Positions 9,534 through 60,501 of a stretch of DNA of 64,000 nt are shown one piece after another. Source of the DNA: Magnetococcales bacterium (lineage in GTDB: Bacteria > Pseudomonadota > Magnetococcia > Magnetococcales > JADGAQ01); NCBI GenBank assembly GCA_015231925.1, contig JADGAQ010000001.1:18728-82727 (forward strand), in the 5' to 3' direction. The notes below the pieces were generated by a model. That model made no database searches. It had not been told where the DNA came from and saw nothing but the letters and a program-made list of their open reading frames with translations. Both the position numbers and the translations under genes were made by a program. How positions within the stretch are numbered: position 1 is the first letter of the stretch; each line of letters opens with the position of its first letter.

Positions 9534-10391
9534 ATGAGTTCTTCTCCGTGGATCATCGAAGCGAATACACAGAACTTTCGCAGCCAGGTGGTGGAGCGTT
9601 CCCGCACCACGCCGGTACTGGTGGATTTTTGGGCTCCCTGGTGCAATCCCTGCCGCACATTGGGGCCCATTCTGGAGAAGCTGGCCCGTGAGGGTGAGGG
9701 GCGCTTTGTGCTGGCCAAGGTCAACTCCGACCAGAACCCCGATCTGGGGCGCTATTTCCAGGTCAAGAGCATTCCGGCGGTGAAGTTGATCATCAACGGG
9801 CAGGTGGTGGATGAGTTCACCGGGGCGTTGCCGGAGTCGGGGATCCGCAAGTTTCTCGACAAGGCCATTCCCAGCCCGGAGGATCGGCTGGCCGAGCAGG
9901 GTATGATGTTGGAGGAAAGCGGGGATTTGAACCGGGCTGCCGGTTGTTATCAGGCGGTATTGGAGCGCAATGCCGCCCATGCCCCGAGTCTGTTGGGCAT
10001 GGCCCGCATCTACCTTGCGGCAGGGGAGAAGGAGCAGGCCAAGGCGTTTCTGGAAAAACTGCCCGCCAAGGAGGCCGAGTCCCCGGAGGCCAAGTCGCTG
10101 AAGGCGCAGATTGAATTCGATGCCTCCGATCTGGACACCTCGGCGTTGGAGGCGCGTATCGCCGCCGACCCTGGTGATCTTCAGGCCCGTCTGGACCTGG
10201 GACGGGCTCTGGTCGGGGATGAACAGTTCGCTGCGGGCATGGATCAGTTTCTGGCGGTGGTGCGGGCGGATCGCTCCTTCCAGGAGGATGCGGGTCGCAA
10301 GGCGATGCTGCAGGTATTCGATCTTCTCGGTCCGAAACATCCCTTGGTGGTGCAGTATCGCTCAAAGCTCTCCTCGATTCTCTTTTCGTGA
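9534..10391 (+). CDS. thioredoxin-domain protein with C-terminal TPR-like domain (YbbN/CnoX-type co-chaperone)
   Basis: 285 aa. It has a thioredoxin fold with an intact WCNPC active site (VLVDFWAPWCNPCRTLGP). A helical TPR-like C-terminal half follows. Confidence 0.85.
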   Translation: MSSSPWIIEANTQNFRSQVVERSRTTPVLVDFWAPWCNPCRTLGPILEKLAREGEGRFVLAKVNSDQNPDLGRYFQVKSIPAVKLIINGQVVDEFTGALPESGIRKFLDKAIPSPEDRLAEQGMMLEESGDLNRAAGCYQAVLERNAAHAPSLLGMARIYLAAGEKEQAKAFLEKLPAKEAESPEAKSLKAQIEFDASDLDTSALEARIAADPGDLQARLDLGRALVGDEQFAAGMDQFLAVVRADRSFQEDAGRKAMLQVFDLLGPKHPLVVQYRSKLSSILFS

Positions 10392-10402
10392 GGGCGTCGG
10401 AC

Positions 10403-11596
10403 ATGGAGACCGGGCCGAGGGTACTGGTGACGCCGCGCAAGAAGATGCCGTTGACCATTCCCCAGGGCATGACTCCGGTGGAGTTTTACAACAGCGCCGC
10501 CAATCTGAAGAATCTGGCCCGGGAGAATGGTCTGTTGCGTACTCCCGAGGACTTTCTGCTCTATCGCAAGCTGTTGGGCCACAGCATCGAGTTTGACACC
10601 TCCATCATTCTGGATACCTCGCAGCGCATCTTGAATCCCCTGGGCAGACCGGTGCGGCGGGATCAACTGACCCATCAGGAGAAGCGGGTTTGGAGCCGCA
10701 TGACCCAGTTGATTCTGGAAGACATGTTGATGCGTTATCCGGATCCGGGCCAGCATGTCATCTTGTGCGGCGAGGCGAGTCTGGATGCCACCTGGCCTTT
10801 GTCGAAGCCGGGGGTTCCCAGTATTCGCATGATTCACAACCACTTCATCTGTTTTCCGGTCACGGATCTGGCAGCGGCCCGGATGGCGCGGGTGGATGAT
10901 CCCAATCTGACGGACAGCGGGCATCACAGCCTTTTCCTGTCGCGGTTGAGCGCGGTTTACGTGCGTTTTCTGGAGGCCTTGGATCTCAAGCAGTTGCGCC
11001 CGGTGGTGACGCGGGAGGCGCGGTTGTCCTTGACGGGGTATCCCAAGGGATTGCCGAGTTGGGAGGTGGTGGACGGTGTTGCGGCGTTGGGCAGACCGGC
11101 TTTCTGGGCGGAATATGACCGGGTGTTGATGGGTTTCCTGGATTTTTACCGCACCTTTTTCAGCCAGGTTTCCTCACGGGGCGCGGAGGCGGTCGCAGAG
11201 TTGCACTTTCCGGATCATGTGGAAAATATTTTATTGTTTTCCAATGACTTTCATAAGGGGGTGCTGGAGGTTCGCAACCGTATCCTGGCGGACCCGCAGT
11301 TTGCCAACGAGGTGCGTTGGCAGCCGGCGTACAAGCAGATTTTGTATCGGGATGACCGGGGGCGGTTGATTGTGACCATCAGTCAGAACTCGGTGGGCAA
11401 TGCCATTACGGAGTTGTTGGGCATTGTGGTGGAGCGGAAAGAGGATGAAGCGGCTTATCGGGCGGCGGAACCGGGCCTGATCGGCAGGCTGCTGGAGGTG
11501 CGGCGCAAGTTGATGGAGGCGGATTTGGGCAGCCCGATTTCGGCCCCGAACTGGCCGGAAGACACTTTTGTGCCGGATCCTGTATCTGTTCAATAA
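10403..11596 (+). CDS. hypothetical protein (397 aa from ATG 10403; the track ORF starts at GTG 10388)
   Basis: This is a long ORF with genome-typical codon usage. ATG 10403 is preceded by GAGGG. I can assign no family. The only motif noticed is SIRMIHNHFICFP, a weak H-x-H as in HIT/GalT-type nucleotidyl transferases. Confidence 0.6.
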   Translation: METGPRVLVTPRKKMPLTIPQGMTPVEFYNSAANLKNLARENGLLRTPEDFLLYRKLLGHSIEFDTSIILDTSQRILNPLGRPVRRDQLTHQEKRVWSRMTQLILEDMLMRYPDPGQHVILCGEASLDATWPLSKPGVPSIRMIHNHFICFPVTDLAAARMARVDDPNLTDSGHHSLFLSRLSAVYVRFLEALDLKQLRPVVTREARLSLTGYPKGLPSWEVVDGVAALGRPAFWAEYDRVLMGFLDFYRTFFSQVSSRGAEAVAELHFPDHVENILLFSNDFHKGVLEVRNRILADPQFANEVRWQPAYKQILYRDDRGRLIVTISQNSVGNAITELLGIVVERKEDEAAYRAAEPGLIGRLLEVRRKLMEADLGSPISAPNWPEDTFVPDPVSVQ

Positions 11597-11629
11597 AATC
11601 CTTTTATTAATAAAAAGGGTTGGGGGAGT

Positions 11630-11669
11630 TTGAGGGGGAGCTCTGCTGCCCCCTCAAGGTTTTTCTTTT
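11630..11669 (+). terminator. rho-independent terminator after the 402-aa ORF
   Basis: TTGAGGGGG-agctctgctg-CCCCCTCAA forms a 9-bp stem and is followed by GGTTTTTCTTTTC. An additional AT-rich imperfect hairpin precedes it at about 11600-11619. Confidence 0.7.
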
Positions 11670-11670
11670 C

Positions 11671-11799
11671 GTATCTGTTCAGGTATACGGGGTTTTGGGG
11701 GGATTATCCCCACCCCAACGGGTCCAGGGGGCACCCCTGGGACTTTTCCTTGCGCTGTTGACTCCGTCATGTCGCGCTGCACAGGGCCCTGAATAGTTA
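11671..11799 (+). repeat. 129-nt GC-rich structured repeat, copy A (possible ncRNA or mobile-element terminus)
   Basis: It aligns end to end with the reverse complement of 60331..60458, with about 20 differences by hand alignment. Hairpins are visible at about 11697-11716 (GGGGA-tta-TCCCC core) and at 11725-11741 (CCAGGGG-gca-CCCCTGG). Confidence 0.8.
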
Positions 11800-11825
11800 T
11801 TTCTTTTCTATCATCTAATAATATA

Positions 11826-12204
11826 TCAAAAGAAAGCATAATCAATCCGTTCCAGGAAATGAATATCGCTGAAACAAACCCTCAAAATCATCTCCAGTCT
11901 GTCGCGCATCAACGACAACCACAAAGAATGCTCCGCACCGTCATCATAATGCTCAAACGCCGATCCGGTATTATAGGGCGGATCGATGAACACACACTTC
12001 ACCTTGCCGGCGAACTCCTGCTCCAAGGCCTTCAAGGCCAGCAGGGTGTTCCCGAAGATCAGCCGGTTATCGTAAAGGTCCCCTGCGGTCCCCGGTGGCG
12101 GGCATGGTGGGATTTCGTCGCATCTTCCAGCAGAATGCGCGGCTCCGTCGAGGGCGGTACTCCTTGCCGATCCAGGTGAGTTCGAGTTTTGGCTTGTTGT
12201 TCAT
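11826..12204 (-). pseudogene. N6-adenine (DPPY-type) DNA methyltransferase, N-terminal remnant with at least two frameshifts and a 3' truncation
   Basis: The minus strand from ATG 12204..12202 reads MNNKPKLELTWIGKEY. A second frame then reads ..EPRILLED... A third frame reads GDLYDNRLIFGNTLLALKALEQEFAGKVKCVFIDPPYNTGSAFEHYDDGAEHSLWLSLMRDRLEMI and stops at 11826. DPPY is methyltransferase motif IV. Only about 125 codons remain of what is normally a far longer protein. Confidence 0.75.
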
Positions 12205-12809
12205 TGAGAGGAGTCTTTCGTTTGCGGTATGGCATTACGGGATTTATTGACTTTATTAACAACTTGAGACAAAAAACCGACTCGCCATGAATATGCTTCT
12301 GCAAGACCTTGTTCACTAATGGTTAATATATGAGGATTGATCGCTGCCTCGAAGTTTTCTAGCCACCAGTGGTCAATTTTGTGAATAAGGCTCAAGATGG
12401 CTTCTATGTGGCCGATCTCGATCATGGGGGTATGGTCATTAATAAGAATTCGTGTTATCCTATGGGCAATCTCGTTGCGATATTTGCGAAGCTCCTGGAT
12501 TAAGTCTGTTTCTTCATCTGATAGTACTTCCCATTCTTTCCATTGCGCTAATTGCATTTCGAATTGTTTCGTCCCAGAGAACAAATGTGTGTATTTTTCT
12601 TGAACTTTGAACTCAATCTGTCCTGATTCAGAAGATATATCAGAAAAGAAGGTTTCCAAATGCTCGCGTATTGCTGTCTGCAACATTTCCCACGCCAGAA
12701 GATAAAGTCCCGCGAGTTGAATTTGTTGCTCCAGACAACCGTCATCATCTAGAAGAAAGCGGCGCAGTTTATTAAGAGGTTCTTCCGAATCAGACATTAT
12801 CGAGTCCAT
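12201..12809 (-). CDS. HEPN-like (Rx4H) protein, candidate Abi/toxin-type RNase
   Basis: This is a 202-aa ORF in AT-rich DNA with atypical codon usage. It contains ..IQELRKYRNEIAHRITRIL.., where R-N-E-I-A-H is the Rx4H HEPN catalytic motif in the RNxxAH form seen in Abi_2-type proteins. Its TGA overlaps the ATG of the methyltransferase remnant (ATGA at 12201-12204). A TATAAT box on the minus strand (plus-strand 12838-12843) lies about 30 nt upstream of its ATG. Confidence 0.6.
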   Translation of the reverse strand: MDSIMSDSEEPLNKLRRFLLDDDGCLEQQIQLAGLYLLAWEMLQTAIREHLETFFSDISSESGQIEFKVQEKYTHLFSGTKQFEMQLAQWKEWEVLSDEETDLIQELRKYRNEIAHRITRILINDHTPMIEIGHIEAILSLIHKIDHWWLENFEAAINPHILTISEQGLAEAYSWRVGFLSQVVNKVNKSRNAIPQTKDSSQ

Positions 12810-18600: not shown

Positions 18601-18686
18601 GGATGGCTTGAAAATTGCTAAGATTTCTTGGTGTTTGAGGGAGTTGCAAAACTCCCGCAGCCAAGCCGGGATATATTTATAATCAT

Positions 18687-18871
18687 TTGACTTTCAATAT
18701 TTTACCTTTTAAGTGTCAAAAAAAGAAAATGTTCTATCCTTTGACTTTTTTGAGCCAAGCGCAAAACTGCGAAGTAAGGTGTTGGAGCGATCTAAATATT
18801 TTGGAAATGAAAAATCAACAGACAGAACATTTTCTTTTTTTGATATTTAAAGGATAAAATATTAAAAGTCA
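18687..18871. repeat. AT-rich long-palindrome intergenic element, copy 1 (arms separated by about 58 nt of unrelated sequence; right arm slightly degenerate)
   Basis: The left arm is TTGACTTTCAATATTTTACCTTTTAAGTGTCAAAAAAAGAAAATGTTCTATCCTTTGACTTTTTTG. The right arm is ..CAACAGACAGAACATTTTCTTTTTTTGATATTTAAAGGATAAAATATTAAAAGTCA. It lies between accA and fba. Confidence 0.85.
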
Positions 18872-18904
18872 CTCGCTTCCCGTTTGAGTTTCAGGAGGGT
18901 TATC

Positions 18905-22435: not shown

Positions 22436-22447
22436 GGGAAGAATCGG

Positions 22448-22586
22448 TTGACTTTCAATATGTTCCTTTAAGTATCAAAAAAAGGAAATGTTCTGTCCTT
22501 TGACTTTTTGAAGAAATTCAAGAAAAAGTCAAAGGACAGAACATTTCCTTTTTTTGATATTTAAAAGATAAAATATTGAAAGTCAA
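22448..22586. repeat. AT-rich long-palindrome intergenic element, copy 2 (most perfect copy)
   Basis: TTGACTTTCAATATGTTCCTTTAAGTATCAAAAAAAGGAAATGTTCTGTCCTTTGACTTTTTG - aagaaattc - AAGAAAAAGTCAAAGGACAGAACATTTCCTTTTTTTGATATTTAAAAGATAAAATATTGAAAGTCAA. It sits between two convergent genes. The stop of the radical-SAM gene (22583-22585) lies inside its last motif. Confidence 0.9.
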
Positions 22587-24313
22587 AAATTTATAGTTTG
22601 AGTTTTTGTAACTTCCTGAAAATGCAAAGGATTCTCTTTCAGTAAGCGCCGGGTCAGATGCAGCCTGACCTCGGCGGACTCCGTCAGACGATGCAGCAGA
22701 TGATGGGGACTGGTGGCCGTTCGGGCCACGGCGTCGAGATCCCCCGCACACTCCTGATAAAGGCGGGGAAGACTCGGGTCAAACCCCGCCAGGGCCCGGA
22801 TCAAGGGATCCTTGTCGCGCCGGGCGGCAATCGTTTCCAGCCGCTCCTCTCCAAGCTGTCCCAGGGTTATATGGGTCGCGCCCCCCAGCACCACCTGCCC
22901 ATCCATCCGCACCATGACATCCACTTCGAAGGGATCCCTCGGCGGGATACCCCTTTCCAGGTAAGCCTCCAGTTCCAGAGAGTTGGGCAGCAGCTCCACG
23001 GGGTCGAGTCGTTCCGCCCGGCCCATGCCGTCCACCTGGGCGCTCATCCAGAAGAAGGGTAGTTGTCGGGGATGATCCGTGAGCCGGAACTGGCCCTGTT
23101 GAAACGGATAACCGATGCGATCGGGCCGGGCGGGATCCCGTCGGGCCAGGGAACTCCGGCTCTGGCTGATCCAGTACATGGCCCGGTTGCGTTCGCGCAG
23201 CTCCCGCTGCAGTCGACCCAGAACACCTTCCCGGAATACCGCCTCCGAAAAATTGAGCCGTTCCAGTCGATGCAGCAGGGCAACTTGAATCCGGGGGTCG
23301 GCGGGAACGCTGGTCAGACAATTGGCTATCCAGGCGATGGGAATGCGTTCCTGCAGTCTGCCTTCCGGGGGAGTGGGGTAAATCTCCTGATGAAAGGCAT
23401 CGCAACTGAACTGCAGCAGCAGACCGGCCGGGCGGGCTTTGCGGGGACGTTGGTTCAAGGCCTCCAGGCAGTTCCGGTAGAAAGAGACGACTTCCTCTTC
23501 ACACTTGCCCAGGGTGCCGTTGAGGATGATGGCAAAGGTGGTCACGGCGGGCAGGGTGGCGACGGCCTGCAAGAAGAGGTCGATATGGCGCTCCGCTTCG
23601 CCGCCGGAAAAGAGCAGATGCGGGGCGAAGCGGCTGGCGGCCTGAAGAATCTCCTCCGGGGGACGGGCCTGCCCTTTCAGGGTGGGGCGCCAGGCGAAGA
23701 GACAGTGACGGCAGGATTGGCGGCAGGCCAGAGTGGGCACGATGCCCGCCTTGAGGCTGGGCAGCGGTGAAAGAGAGCCCTTTTTCAAACCGTCCACCAG
23801 GGCGAGGCGTTCCCGGTCCGGACTTCCCCCAACCTGCCGTGCAATCTGTTTCTGCCGTTGACTGAGGCGTCGCAGGGCCGTTTGCTCCTCCTCCGGATGA
23901 TCCGCGGGGCAACAGGCCAGGGCCTGGGAGACGGCCTTGACCGGATCCTCTCCGCCCTGCTGCCACCAGTGCAGCACCGCCTGCCGCCGGGGATCTCCCG
24001 GAGGCTGCTCCCGCCAGAAGGTCAGATATCCCTGCAGAAAGCTGCCGTCACTGACCGCCTGGTTCATGAGGGGGCCAAGGTAGGTTTGGGAAGGGTGGGT
24101 GAAGAGACCTGCCACGGCCTGCCCGCGCCAGCGCACATGAACGAGCCGTTGCAGCTCCCGGTAGGCCTGCAGGCAGCTCAACGGATCCAGGAGGTAGGAG
24201 GGCAACTCCTCTCGACGGGCGCGATCTTCGAGGTGTTGGCTTTCCCGGTTGCACCGGGCGCGAATCCGGCGCAACTGCGCGGCAAGGTACTCCTCCGTCA
24301 GGTCCGGTTTCAT
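22583..24313 (-). CDS. atypical radical SAM-like protein (576 aa) with long N- and C-terminal extensions
   Basis: It contains GIVPTLACRQSCRHCLFAW, the CxxxCxxC cluster motif. About 45 aa later comes LLFSGGEAERH, a GGE-type SAM-binding motif. The first roughly 190 aa and last roughly 250 aa match nothing I recognise. Its ATG overlaps the stop of the upstream glycosyltransferase. Confidence 0.6.
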   Translation of the reverse strand: MKPDLTEEYLAAQLRRIRARCNRESQHLEDRARREELPSYLLDPLSCLQAYRELQRLVHVRWRGQAVAGLFTHPSQTYLGPLMNQAVSDGSFLQGYLTFWREQPPGDPRRQAVLHWWQQGGEDPVKAVSQALACCPADHPEEEQTALRRLSQRQKQIARQVGGSPDRERLALVDGLKKGSLSPLPSLKAGIVPTLACRQSCRHCLFAWRPTLKGQARPPEEILQAASRFAPHLLFSGGEAERHIDLFLQAVATLPAVTTFAIILNGTLGKCEEEVVSFYRNCLEALNQRPRKARPAGLLLQFSCDAFHQEIYPTPPEGRLQERIPIAWIANCLTSVPADPRIQVALLHRLERLNFSEAVFREGVLGRLQRELRERNRAMYWISQSRSSLARRDPARPDRIGYPFQQGQFRLTDHPRQLPFFWMSAQVDGMGRAERLDPVELLPNSLELEAYLERGIPPRDPFEVDVMVRMDGQVVLGGATHITLGQLGEERLETIAARRDKDPLIRALAGFDPSLPRLYQECAGDLDAVARTATSPHHLLHRLTESAEVRLHLTRRLLKENPLHFQEVTKTQTINF

Positions 24314-29753: not shown

Positions 29754-30992
<1,239 letters not shown>

Positions 30993-42318: not shown

Positions 42319-42330
42319 CGCTGTTTTGTG

Positions 42331-42496
42331 TTTTATATTTTCAATATTTTGTCTTTTAAGTATCAAAAAAAGAAAATGTTCTGTCTTTTGACTTGTTTAT
42401 TGATTCTATGAAAATTTATTAAATGTATTATTATAAAATAAAAAGTCAAAACATTTTCTTTTTTTGATACTTTAAAGGAAACATGTTGAAAGGCAA
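42331..42496. repeat. AT-rich long-palindrome intergenic element, copy 3 (outer ends degenerate, 7-nt deletion in right arm)
   Basis: The left arm reads ..TTTCAATATTTTGTCTTTTAAGTATCAAAAAAAGAAAATGTTCTGTCTTTTGACTTG. An AT-rich centre follows. The right arm reads AAAAGTCAAAACATTTTCTTTTTTTGATACTTTAAAGGAAACATGTTGAAAGGCAA. It lies between convergent apaH and the DUF790-like gene. Confidence 0.8.
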
Positions 42497-42519
42497 ATAT
42501 TCAAACCTGGACTTCATCA

Positions 42520-53486: not shown

Positions 53487-56400
53487 ATGAGTGGCAAGGA
53501 TCGGGAAACGGGCTTGGGTGGTGGTGCTGGTGGAAACCGGAACACCGGTGATGACGATGCCGTGACCATCCTGGGTAGTGGCTTGCGCCTGGTGCCGGCG
53601 GATGAACCCGACAAGAGCGGGATTGCCGAGGAGGAGGATGCACCGACGGTGCTGGGCCTTCTTGTCACGCCGCCACCTTCACCGGTGGACGACGAGGATG
53701 CCCCGACGGTGCTGGGCCTTCCTGTCATGCCGCCTCCTTCCTCGGTGGACGACGAGGATACCCCGACGGTGTTGAGCCGTCCGGTCCATACCGGGGGTGT
53801 CCGCTATGATCTGTCGGACTCTGGCCGGGGAAGTGCGCCTCAGGAAGAAGACGATGCAGCGACGGTGATGGCGGTCGTTCCTCCTGCAGCGCCCACCACC
53901 CGGCCAAAGGCCGTGGTCGACGAGGCGGCTACGGTATTGGCAGTTTCGCTACCTGGCGGGGGGAATGAGGCGACTCTCCTGGCAACAGGTGAAGCAACCA
54001 CCGAATCGGAGAAGACCTCCGCCACGGATGACACCGACGGTTCGGTTTTGAAACCGGCGGTGGTGGAGCATCCGGCGGACGCTTTGCCCATCGGACAGAT
54101 GCTGTTGTGGTACAAGATCGTCAAGGTGCTGGGCCAGGGTGGTTTTGGTATGACCTACAAGGCCCACGATACGCGACTCGACAATTATGTCGCCTTGAAG
54201 GAGTTCCTTCCGACCCAGTTGGCCAGCCGGCGGCCCGACAAAACGATTCAGGCAAAATCGTCGGAGGCCGAACCTCTGTTCATCAAAGGGCGGCAGCGCT
54301 TTCTTGACGAAGCCCGGACTCTGGCCAAGTTCAAACATCCCTCCCTGGTTCGGGTGACCACCTTCTTCGAAGAGTACAATACCGCCTACATGGCGATGGA
54401 GTTCGAGGACGGTGAATCGTTGGCCGCCTTGCTGAAAGCCAAGAAGACCCTGGACGAAAAGGAGTTGCTGGGGGTCATGATGCCCCTGATGCAGGGTATT
54501 CAGGTTTTGCACGAAGCCCAGTATATCCATCGGGACATCAAGCCGGATAATATCTTCATTCGGGCCAAGGACAACACCCCCGTGTTGTTGGACTTTGGTT
54601 CGGCCCGCAGGGCATCCGGGGAGGATGGCGGCCACATGACGGCCATGTTGACTCCCAACTACGCGCCGATGGAGCAGTATTTCGAGGATGCCAGCCGCCA
54701 GGGCCCCTGGACCGATATCTATGCCCTGGGTGCGGTGATGTATCGCTGTATCAGCGGACGCAAGCCCATCGGGGCGCCGCAACGCAGCAATGCCTTGATG
54801 CGGCAGCAGCCCGATCCCTTGAAGCCCGCATTGGAAATTGGACAGGGTCATTATTCCGAAGCGGTTCTCAAGGCTATTGATCTGGCCTTGCGGGTCATCG
54901 AGACGGAACGTCCCAAATCGATTCCGGACTGGTTGAAGGCGGTCCAATCGGAGAAGGGGGGCGAGGACAGCGACCTGATCTCCATGCTGGAGACGGCGGC
55001 GGGTGCCAAGACCACCCCACCGCAACGCATCGCGGTACTGGCGACGGGGGCGGTGGCCATTCTCGGCGCGGGTCTGTTTCTGTGGAACACCCTGGCGGTC
55101 AAACTGCCTTCCCCCGAGGAGGTGGCCCGCGAGAAGGCGGCTGTGGAGTTCAAAAGCCTTCAGGAAAAGAGCATCCAGGGAGACGGTCAGGCCATGCTGG
55201 ATCTGGCTGGTCGTTATCAGGAAGGTCGGGGTGTGGCCCAGGATCCCTTTCAGAGTCTGGAGTGGTACACCAAAGCGGCCCAGAAGGGCATGCAAGAGGC
55301 ACAGTATCGTCTGGGTCTGATCTACCTTCAGGGGTTGGGAACACCGCGCAGCTCCGTCAAGGCGGTGGAGTGGTTTCAGGCTGCGGCCAAACAGGGACAT
55401 GTCGAAAGCATGTTTCAGCTTGGCAAGGCGCTGGAAATGGGGGCCGGCGTCAAGGTGGACAACAAGGCGGCCCTGGATTGGCATCAGAAGGCTGCCGAGC
55501 TGGGCCATGTCGAGGCGGGGTACCGTATTGGCGTGGCCATGGAGCAGGGGCAGTTGATGCCTCAGGATCTCAAGGGCGCCTTCGATCGATTCGTCAAGGC
55601 GGCGGAGAAGGGTGTGCCCGAAGCCCAGTATCGCCTGGGCAGCATGTTTCGGGACGGGCGCGGGATTGAAGCCGATGCCGCCAATGCCACCCGCTATTTC
55701 CGTCGGGCCGCTGCCCAGGGGCACATGGAATCCCAGTTCATCCTGGCGCAACGCCTTTTCAAGGGTGAAGGCGGCAAAGCGGACCATATCGAGGCGGCGG
55801 ATTGGTTGCGCAAGGCGGCTGAGTCCGGCCATGCGGAGGCCCAGTTCGATTTGGGCCGTGCCTATGAAAAGGGTGATGGCGTTCCTCTGGATGGCATGGC
55901 GGCATTGAAGTGGTATTCCACGGCGGCTGAAAAAGGGTTTCTGAACGCCCAGTTGATGCTTGCCGGAAAGTTTTTGTATGGGGACGGTGTTCCGGAAGAC
56001 CACAAATCGGCTGCCAAATGGTTTCAAAAGGCGGCGGAGCAGGGCAACGCCATTGCCCAAACCAACCTGGCCAAGCTCTATCGACTGGGGCTTGGCGTGG
56101 ATGTCGATTACCACAATGCCTTGCGCTGGTTTTTGGAAGCCGCCAAGCAGGGTAATGCCGAGGCCCAGAACAGTCTGGGTTCCATGCTGGAGAATGGTCA
56201 AGGGGTGGACCAGGATCTGAAATCCTCCTTCATGTGGTATCAGAAGGCGGCGGACCAGGGTGAATCCAGCGCCATGTACAATCTGGGCTGGATGTACGAG
56301 GAGGGGCGCGGAGTCGATCGCAATATTCAGGAGGCGGCGAAATGGTACGCCAGGGCGGCCTCCAAAGGCCATTCCCGGGCCCAAAACAGCCTGGGATGGA

Positions 56401-57525: not shown

Positions 57526-57534
57526 AGTTGTCTT

Positions 57535-57685
57535 TTGACGTTTAATATTTAGTCTTTAAAAAATCAAAAAAAGAAAATGTTCTGTCCTTTGACTTTTTTG
57601 TACTTTAATAATATCTTTTAAAGAAAAGTCAAAGGACAGAACATTTTCTTTTTTTGATTTTTTAAAGGATTAAAATATTAAAAAG
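57535..57685. repeat. AT-rich long-palindrome intergenic element, copy 4
   Basis: TTGACGTTTAATATTTAGTCTTTAAAAAATCAAAAAAAGAAAATGTTCTGTCCTTTGACTTTTTTG - centre - AAGAAAAGTCAAAGGACAGAACATTTTCTTTTTTTGATTTTTTAAAGGATTAAAATATTAAAAAG. It lies between the ROK kinase and the MBL-fold gene. Confidence 0.85.
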
Positions 57686-57735
57686 AATTCCCCAATCTGG
57701 TGGTATCGTCTCCTTCGACGAAACGGAAAAAGGCC

Positions 57736-60314: not shown

Positions 60315-60330
60315 TAAAAATTAAACACTG

Positions 60331-60458
60331 TAACTATTCAGGCCCTTGCACAGCGCGGCATGATCGTGTCAACAGCGAAAGGAAAAGTCCCAGGGCGCTG
60401 CCCTGGACCCGTCGGGGGGGATAATCCCCCCCGAACCCCCGTATACCTGAACAGATAC
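60331..60458 (-). repeat. 129-nt GC-rich structured repeat, copy B (inverted relative to copy A)
   Basis: Its reverse complement aligns with 11671..11799. Its hairpins are CGGGGGGGA-tta-TCCCCCCCG and CCAGGGC-agc-GCCCTGG. Confidence 0.8.
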
Positions 60459-60501
60459 AAAACACTTAAAACTTAGCCGAAGTGATATTGTTTTTCAATA
60501 G

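Follow-up and report, generated by a model that had tools for sequence, protein, structure and literature searches.

The IS66 family of insertion sequences (ISs) includes a branch with a single open reading frame (ORF), the ISBst12/ISGka4 type, whose members are 1.4-1.7 kb long and encode a transposase of 450-485 aa. ISDge4 of Deinococcus geothermalis, a member of the ISBst12 group, is bounded by the terminal inverted repeats (TIRs) GTGACTACTCAGCA and GTAACTGCTCAGCA, and its direct repeat measures 8 bp (PMC12898284). [quoted passage not shown] For the single-ORF branch of IS66, our literature search found no paper on MITEs. Here we analyse a stretch of 64,000 nt, called the window below, from a Magnetococcales bacterium (assembly GCA_015231925.1, contig JADGAQ010000001.1, positions 18,728 to 82,727 of the forward strand), which contains two inverted copies, A and B, of a GC-rich element of about 130 bp that had been noticed in a reading of the sequence alone. 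The inverted ends of these copies, their target duplications and the match of both to an IS family lead us to read the element as a small non-autonomous transposon; with high confidence, A and B are two copies of a non-coding MITE of the IS66 type (ISBst12/ISGka4). The family is new and comes from an uncultured magnetotactic bacterium, and the kind of element is known.

Both copies lie where the sequence-only reading had placed them. They align end to end, with 84.6% identity over 130 columns (blastn), from GTATCTGTTCAGGTATACGGGG to CCTGAATAGTTA when positions 11671-11799 of the forward strand are set against 60331-60458 of the reverse strand. The homology extends one 3′ base past these earlier limits, to 11671-11800 for A and 60330-60458 for B, and the near-ungapped MAFFT alignment contains 23 differing columns, one indel included, rather than the roughly 20 counted by hand. 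In the window there are exactly two occurrences of the 22-mer GTATCTGTTCAGGTATACGGGG that A and B have in common, and exactly two of a 24-nt internal block, GGGACTTTTCCTTNCGCTGTTGAC, against none of either in 100 shuffles, and a covariance model built from the A/B pair and run with filters off finds A and B as its sole matches in the 64 kb. No ORF of at least 50 aa spans copy B and the frames differ between the copies, so that no reading frame is conserved between them, in agreement with what had been claimed, and the reading frames of A and B (eight open and two stop-truncated frames, concatenated) have no protein match at E≤1. MITEs are small, about 50-600 bp, and contain neither a transposase gene nor a conserved ORF; the copies, with 130 and 129 bp, agree with them in both respects.

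Two identifying features had been missed in the first reading, namely 13-bp inverted ends and 8-bp direct repeats. The TIRs of both copies are 13 bp long (GTAWCTRTTCAGG), and their 12-nt core TAWCTRTTCAGG, with up to one mismatch, is found in the window only at the four element ends, where 0.25 occurrences would be expected by chance. Direct repeats abut these ends exactly, TTCTTTTC on the two sides of A (8/8) and AGTGTTTT/AGTGTTTA on those of B (7/8), and the A/B homology stops exactly at their boundaries. In the window background, 8/8 matches at the spacing of A occur at 6 of 63,854 positions (9e-5) and matches of 7/8 or better at the spacing of B at 21 of 63,855 (about 3e-4); the rates for the duplications of A, B and the relative from strain MYC-9 described below span 5e-5 to 3e-4. 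A 9-bp duplication (9/9 for A, 7/9 for B) was considered and dropped: the terminal C of B, of the MYC-9 element and of the IS on plasmid pHTA426 mismatches the upstream flank, which makes an 8-bp duplication with G...C termini the simpler reading.

This duplication changes how the flanks of the copies are to be understood. Both had been described as beginning right after a hairpin plus T-run and as abutting AT-rich DNA on the distal side; given an 8-bp duplication, the T-run before the element and the first bases behind it represent a T-rich target that has been duplicated, one half on either side, and the hairpin that precedes the T-run is strongly terminator-like only at A and weak at B. When A and one of its repeats are removed, a hairpin followed by TTTTTCTTTTCTATC is restored (GAGGGGGAGCTCTGCTGCCCCCTCAAGGTTTTTCTTTTCTATC), which forms a terminator-like site after the gene of a 402-aa protein upstream of A.

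The ends and the duplication point to the same family of transposons. GTAA-type ends are listed for IS66 in ISfinder. An ISGka4-like IS on the Geobacillus kaustophilus plasmid pHTA426 (our locus L020:14107-15741) has the ends GTATCTATTCAGCCC / GTAACTATTCAGCCC, the duplication GACGAGTT on both sides (8/8) and a 485-aa transposase with DDE_Tnp_IS66 (PF03050), zf-IS66 and DUF6444 domains. Against these ends, the left and the right end of A/B each match at 12/13 positions, with family-type termini GTAWCTNNTCAG, and they share the T/A asymmetry at position 4 seen in GTATCTATTCAG / GTAACTATTCAG of pHTA426. ISDge4 has a nearly identical terminal sequence (GTAACTGCTCAGCA). Further ISs of the IS66 family, picked via homologues about 36-41% identical, end in GTAACTACTCAGCTT in Bacillus thuringiensis, with the duplication CAAAATTT (8/8), in GTTACTGCCCAGG in Acaryochloris marina, with the duplication ACAAATGC (8/8), and in GTAACTATTCAGCTT in Oceanisphaera, where no duplication was seen. 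A duplication of 8 bp is thus common to A, B, the MYC-9 element, the ISs of pHTA426, B. thuringiensis and Acaryochloris, and ISDge4. The likeness is confined to the ends, since A/B and these ISs have no sequence similarity past the first 12-13 nt; unlike the much longer ISs, A and B contain no gene, and the hosts of the ISGka4-like IS and ISDge4 are Firmicutes and Deinococcus, whereas that of A/B belongs to the Magnetococcales.

The search for relatives covered six other Magnetococcales assemblies and took in about 100 kb of DNA surrounding their orthologues of the 402-aa gene; the TIR pattern was run on all six and the covariance model on the first three loci (63.5 kb). The best covariance-model match is a 252-nt element of Magnetococcus sp. 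MYC-9 (assembly GCA_039908525.1, L016:11180-11431, JAMOAY010000008.1), which lies 15 nt past the stop codon of the orthologue, ends in GTAACTGTTCAGG ... CTGAATAGTTAC and is flanked by a perfect 8/8 duplication, AAAGCGCG. Its left end matches that of ISDge4 (GTAACTGCTCAGC) at 11/13 positions. A 28-nt block (GGGGGTYCGGGGGRGATTATCYCCCCCG) is identical to hairpin 1 of B at 25/28 positions, and a G:C pair of this stem is replaced by A:T through compensation. In strain DMHC-8 (L019), where the orthologue is 87% identical and the same two genes follow downstream, the syntenic spacer has 57 nt and lacks the element, so that the filled MYC-9 site and the empty DMHC-8 site provide a presence/absence comparison for the family. 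For the A and B loci themselves, the closest genomes available lack synteny, and their proteins are about 70% identical. The MYC-9 element resembles A and B in its 13-bp ends, its 8-bp duplication, its hairpin-1 block and its position after the same orthologous gene, but it is twice as long, has AT-rich subterminal arms and different internal GC hairpins, and folds far more stably (-145 kcal/mol, z = -10.7). It is an independent insertion, with another duplication; that it and A lie after the same gene may be a coincidence or reflect a preferred site.

How the element would move can be proposed from these features. The 13-bp ends (GTAWCTRTTCAGG) would be recognised in trans by a DDE transposase that belongs to the single-ORF IS66 branch and has its gene elsewhere in the genome; the element would be integrated at staggered cuts 8 bp apart, with gap repair duplicating the target. 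On this reading A and B are two independent insertions into T- or AT-rich spacers between convergent genes, and the target of A was the T-tract in the terminator-like sequence behind the 402-aa gene. The GC-rich core folds into three hairpins, which the paired ends close. Both the identity of this transposase and its presence in the genome are what we infer from the ends and the duplication length, in the way in which the mobilising IS of MITEAba12 (PMC6382973) was inferred. That element is also non-coding, within the same range of about 110-130 bp, and bounded by short imperfect inverted ends and a target duplication. It differs in being 78% AT, in its proposed parent, ISAba12, which is co-resident, and in that its transposition has been seen experimentally, while A and B have a core of 58% GC that forms three hairpins, and neither the window nor the relatives sampled contained a parent IS.

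Several observations weigh against the assignment to an IS66-type MITE. A tblastn search with four IS66-type transposases found none in the window or in the approximately 100 kb of relatives' loci, and no full-length IS with these ends is present there either. The element is therefore non-autonomous, and any partner that the genome encodes must lie outside the window. A and B are GC-rich (58%), whereas typical MITEs are AT-rich, their core consists of three separate hairpins instead of one long stem, and A terminates in T where B and the MYC-9 relative have the family consensus C. Only two copies are visible, both within the 64-kb window, and a high copy number would have to come from DNA beyond it. 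Exact 18-mer scans of GTDB representative genomes and JGI metagenomes gave chance matches only, checked by blastn, and two IMG/VR scans gave nothing; the words used reach into the A/B-specific interior, so that relatives like the MYC-9 element would escape these scans. A distant blastn search against plasmids and phages returned noise only. The literature on the reference IS leaves the sub-family label unsettled as well, because ISGka4 is placed in ISLre2, with repeats of 9 bp, in the G. kaustophilus paper, based on one insertion site with a repeat beginning with C; the transposase is nevertheless of the IS66 type, and the 9-bp repeat can also be read as 8 bp together with the terminal C.

As an observation apart from A and B, the family label and repeat length given for ISGka4 in the literature may need revisiting, in view of the 8-bp repeat with ends GTATC...GTTAC and the clear DDE_Tnp_IS66/zf-IS66 transposase.

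What had attracted attention in the first place was the folding of the two copies, and the sequence-only reading proposed, among other candidates, that they form a family of independently transcribed structured small RNA (sRNA) genes. On the element strand, the ends of both copies pair in a 9-10-bp closing stem around three hairpins, and the minimum free energy (MFE) is -57.2 and -57.3 kcal/mol, compared with -48.7 and -51.4 for the opposite strand; together with conserved G-U pairs, this strand preference favours an RNA. Hairpin 1 is bulged in A and perfect in B, as described earlier, with a stem in B of 10 bp and not 9, and the fold and the alignment agree that hairpin 2 has G:C as its innermost pair in A but C:G in B. 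This change and the replacement of U:A by G:C in hairpin 1 are clean double compensations, accompanied by two one-sided changes that keep pairing. When A was mutated at random with the observed number of changes, the MFE came to -43.5 ± 5.5 kcal/mol, and the -57.3 of B was attained in only 21 of 2000 runs; starting from B, 27 of 2000 reached the real value. Structure has therefore been kept beyond neutral drift, at about the 1% level, which modestly bears out the earlier impression as far as the structure goes and does not by itself show an RNA gene. Structural constraint and hairpin-templated mutation would both agree with the retention of the hairpins. Apparent compensation can arise in the absence of selection when the template is switched within a palindrome. 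The change in hairpin 2 is a block of five adjacent differences, which looks like one complex event, and the evidence for compensation comes from two or three sequences in all. A constraint could act as easily on DNA, through binding of the transposase or a host factor, as on RNA.

We regard the sRNA reading, in which the product would be the four-way-junction fold and the C/U-rich junction ACUUUUCCUU could serve as an anti-Shine-Dalgarno seed, as improbable. A and B have no Rfam match at gathering thresholds and only noise at E≤10, their flanks are unrelated and thus offer no common promoter upstream, and the element strand has no promoter-like site within the unit. These grounds make a stand-alone sRNA gene unlikely, and they are still compatible with transcription of the element as such. 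The fold z-scores against dinucleotide shuffles are modest, about -2.5 for both copies, the terminator-like hairpin stands in the middle of the unit and not at its 3′ end, and the fold as a whole is not seen in the MYC-9 relative, which has just the ends and hairpin 1 in common with the copies. That both copies are oriented like their upstream genes speaks for the sRNA, but two orientations agree by chance with a probability of 0.25, and the inverted ends and duplications require an origin by transposition in any case. The ends match a known IS family, which the sequence-only reading had itself listed as an outcome refuting a structured RNA. A tRNA-like gene was rejected too, as ARAGORN and Rfam find only tRNA-Leu and tRNA-Gln elsewhere in the window.

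The other candidates put forward with the sRNA took the copies as the terminal or att-proximal remnant of a decayed integrative element, as a structured single-stranded DNA recombination site, for which we considered attC, IS200/IS605 and the palindromic REP repeats, or as substrates for an inversion. A remnant or such a recombination site, both of which we think very unlikely, finds some support in the neighbourhood of A, which adjoins a low-GC islet (with a frameshifted methyltransferase and a HEPN gene) near tRNA-Leu, and in an 11-nt copy of the element 5′ end that overlaps the stop codon of the upstream gene. No such islet lies beside B, however, no integrase is adjacent to either copy among the flanking ORFs scanned, and each copy is a complete unit within its own duplication, exactly where the homology ends. 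As for recombination sites, the attC core-site consensus is RYYYAAC ... GTTRRRY, with no target duplication; the ends of the element are not of this type, the 3′ junctions reading GTTATTT in A and GTTACAG in B instead of GTTRRRY, and direct repeats flank the copies. REP and IS200-type sequences are short palindromes mobilised by HUH (Y1) transposases, without terminal inverted repeats or target duplications, and the presence of both inverted ends and 8-bp duplications speaks against them and against REP/BIME or IS200/IS605 elements in general. The inversion of the dnaE-containing segment is scarcely credible. A and B are indeed inverted repeats 48.5 kb apart, but each has its own matched duplication (8/8 for A and 7/8 for B), while an exchange between them would leave mismatched flanks, so that intact duplications at both places disfavour it; besides, at 84.6% identity their longest perfect run in common is 22 bp, which the minimal homology length for RecA makes a poor substrate. 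A composite transposon bounded by A and B was likewise rejected because of the separate duplications.

The element may influence neighbouring transcripts. Hairpin 2 and the U-rich ACUUUUCCUU are flagged as terminator-like in both copies, and mRNAs that read through from the gene upstream may be ended or stabilised by this unit. B begins 43 nt past the stop codon of a REC-GGDEF gene with no strong terminator in between, and it may therefore end or stabilise that mRNA. SPRITE, BOX and RUP of Streptococcus pneumoniae and the QMITEs of Coxiella are also small intergenic repeats with stable stem-loop transcripts, some of which carry hairpins like Rho-independent terminators, comparable to the putative terminator of hairpin 2 in A/B, although they have no sequence relationship to these copies (PMC10969869). 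One could go further and regard the hairpin core as selected cargo, in which case a family of IS66-type MITEs would be supplying Magnetococcales genes at their 3′ ends with ready terminators or with modules that stabilise RNA. We hold this to be a rather unlikely extension, built on hairpin 1, which is kept at 25/28 positions with compensation between two genera whose proteins are about 70% identical, and on the terminator-like hairpin 2; there may also be a preference for particular gene ends, given that an element follows the same orthologous gene in the window and in MYC-9, plus a solo end described after the table.

Table 1. Positions of the two MITE copies, their parts and a solitary end in the window. 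Strand "." marks direct repeats.
Feature	Position	Strand	Remarks
MITE copy A	11671-11800	+	130 nt; end-to-end alignment with B; covariance-model score 154 bits
Left target-site duplication of A, TTCTTTTC	11663-11670	.	identical to 11801-11808
Left TIR of A, GTATCTGTTCAGG	11671-11683	+	12-nt core same as in ISGka4-like IS ends
Hairpin 1 of A (GGGGU/ACCCC + GGGGG/UCCCC, bulge)	11689-11716	+	MFE fold; homologous block in B and MYC-9 element
Hairpin 2 of A, then ACTTTTCCTT, terminator-like	11720-11745	+	flagged at 11723-11741
Hairpin 3 of A, imperfect	11748-11786	+	MFE fold
Right TIR of A, read inward ATAACTATTCAGG	11788-11800	-	pattern search; begins ATAAC
Right target-site duplication of A, TTCTTTTC	11801-11808	.	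identical to 11663-11670
MITE copy B	60330-60458	-	129 nt; covariance-model score 140.5 bits
Target-site duplication of B, element 5′ side, AGTGTTTT on element strand	60459-60466	.	7/8 against 60322-60329
Left TIR of B, GTATCTGTTCAGG	60446-60458	-	pattern search
Hairpin 1 of B, perfect 10-bp stem, UUA loop	60412-60434	-	block 25/28 identical to MYC-9 element
Hairpin 2 of B, then ACTTTTCCTTT, terminator-like	60385-60410	-	flagged at 60407-60389
Hairpin 3 of B	60344-60382	-	MFE fold
Right TIR of B, read inward GTAACTATTCAGG	60330-60342	+	pattern search
Target-site duplication of B, element 3′ side, AGTGTTTA on element strand	60322-60329	.	7/8 against 60459-60466
Solo TIR-like sequence, GTATCTGTTCAAT	11582-11594	+	11/13 match; overlaps stop codon of 402-aa gene

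Both insertions sit between convergent genes, A between the 402-aa gene and a frameshifted, truncated methyltransferase pseudogene, and B between the REC-GGDEF gene and an FKBP gene. The solo TIR-like sequence lies 79 nt upstream of A. Its first 11 nt (GTATCTGTTCA, 11582-11592) are identical to the left end of the MITE, it encodes the C-terminal tail VSVQ* of the 402-aa protein, which the homologues lack, and the window contains few sequences that match the TIR with up to two mismatches. Possibly it is what an older copy left behind. The attempt to read 11582-11670 together with the DNA beyond A as an older and longer element like that of MYC-9 was rejected, since the alignment is confined to the 11-nt end and scores no differently from shuffled sequence. 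Taken with the insertion behind this gene in MYC-9, the solo end hints at a preferred insertion site, in a sample that was centred on that gene.

The value of these findings is mostly one of annotation, as a conspicuous structured repeat in an uncultured magnetotactic bacterium turns out to be selfish DNA and not a new RNA gene. The GTAWCTRTTCAGG ends and the 8-bp duplication can serve to search Magnetococcales genomes for the family and its parent of the IS66 type, and the element is a small data point on the non-autonomous derivatives spawned by the single-ORF branch of IS66. No long-standing question hinges on it. The residual interest lies in the hairpin module and its possible role as a terminator; the hairpins could affect 3′-end formation of the REC-GGDEF and 402-aa genes.

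The 402-aa protein (gene at 10388-11596, forward strand), which lacks any Pfam domain, is highly conserved. A hypothetical protein from a Magnetococcales metagenome-assembled genome (locus tag HQL56_00125; 397 aa in the NCBI form) is 100% identical to it, and the next-best homologues are about 70% identical. Proteins with 62-71% identity over about 97% of its length are found in Magnetococcales, large sulfur bacteria (Thiomargarita and Beggiatoa-like), Candidatus Kentrum and Magnetoovum. The gene is widespread, and no function has been assigned to it.

On the other side of A, a low-GC islet (11826-12809, reverse strand; about 40% GC against about 60% for the window) separates the MITE from a glutamate racemase gene and tRNA-Leu. 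It contains an N6/N4 DNA methyltransferase pseudogene, frameshifted and truncated at its 3′ side, with pieces at 12067-12204, 12059-12316 and 11826-12035, and a 202-aa ORF with a HEPN domain, and it looks like the decayed remnant of a defence or restriction-modification system.

The window also contains repeats of other kinds. A second, unrelated family consists of four AT-rich long palindromes at 18683-18891, 22442-22605, 42330-42515 and 57531-57705. They span some 170-210 nt, their arms measure roughly 45-80 nt with a complementarity of up to 96%, and they have TCAAAAAAAGAAAATGTTCTGTCCTTTGACTTTT in the core and TTGACTTTCAATATT...AATATTGAAAGTCAA at the outer ends. A target duplication is not obvious by eye, and the family could be another MITE-like element or a shared regulatory palindrome. 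Finally, two tandem 60-nt units, 87% identical, occur at 53628-53747, with a weaker third match at 30433-30492, and are probably a coding repeat inside a gene.

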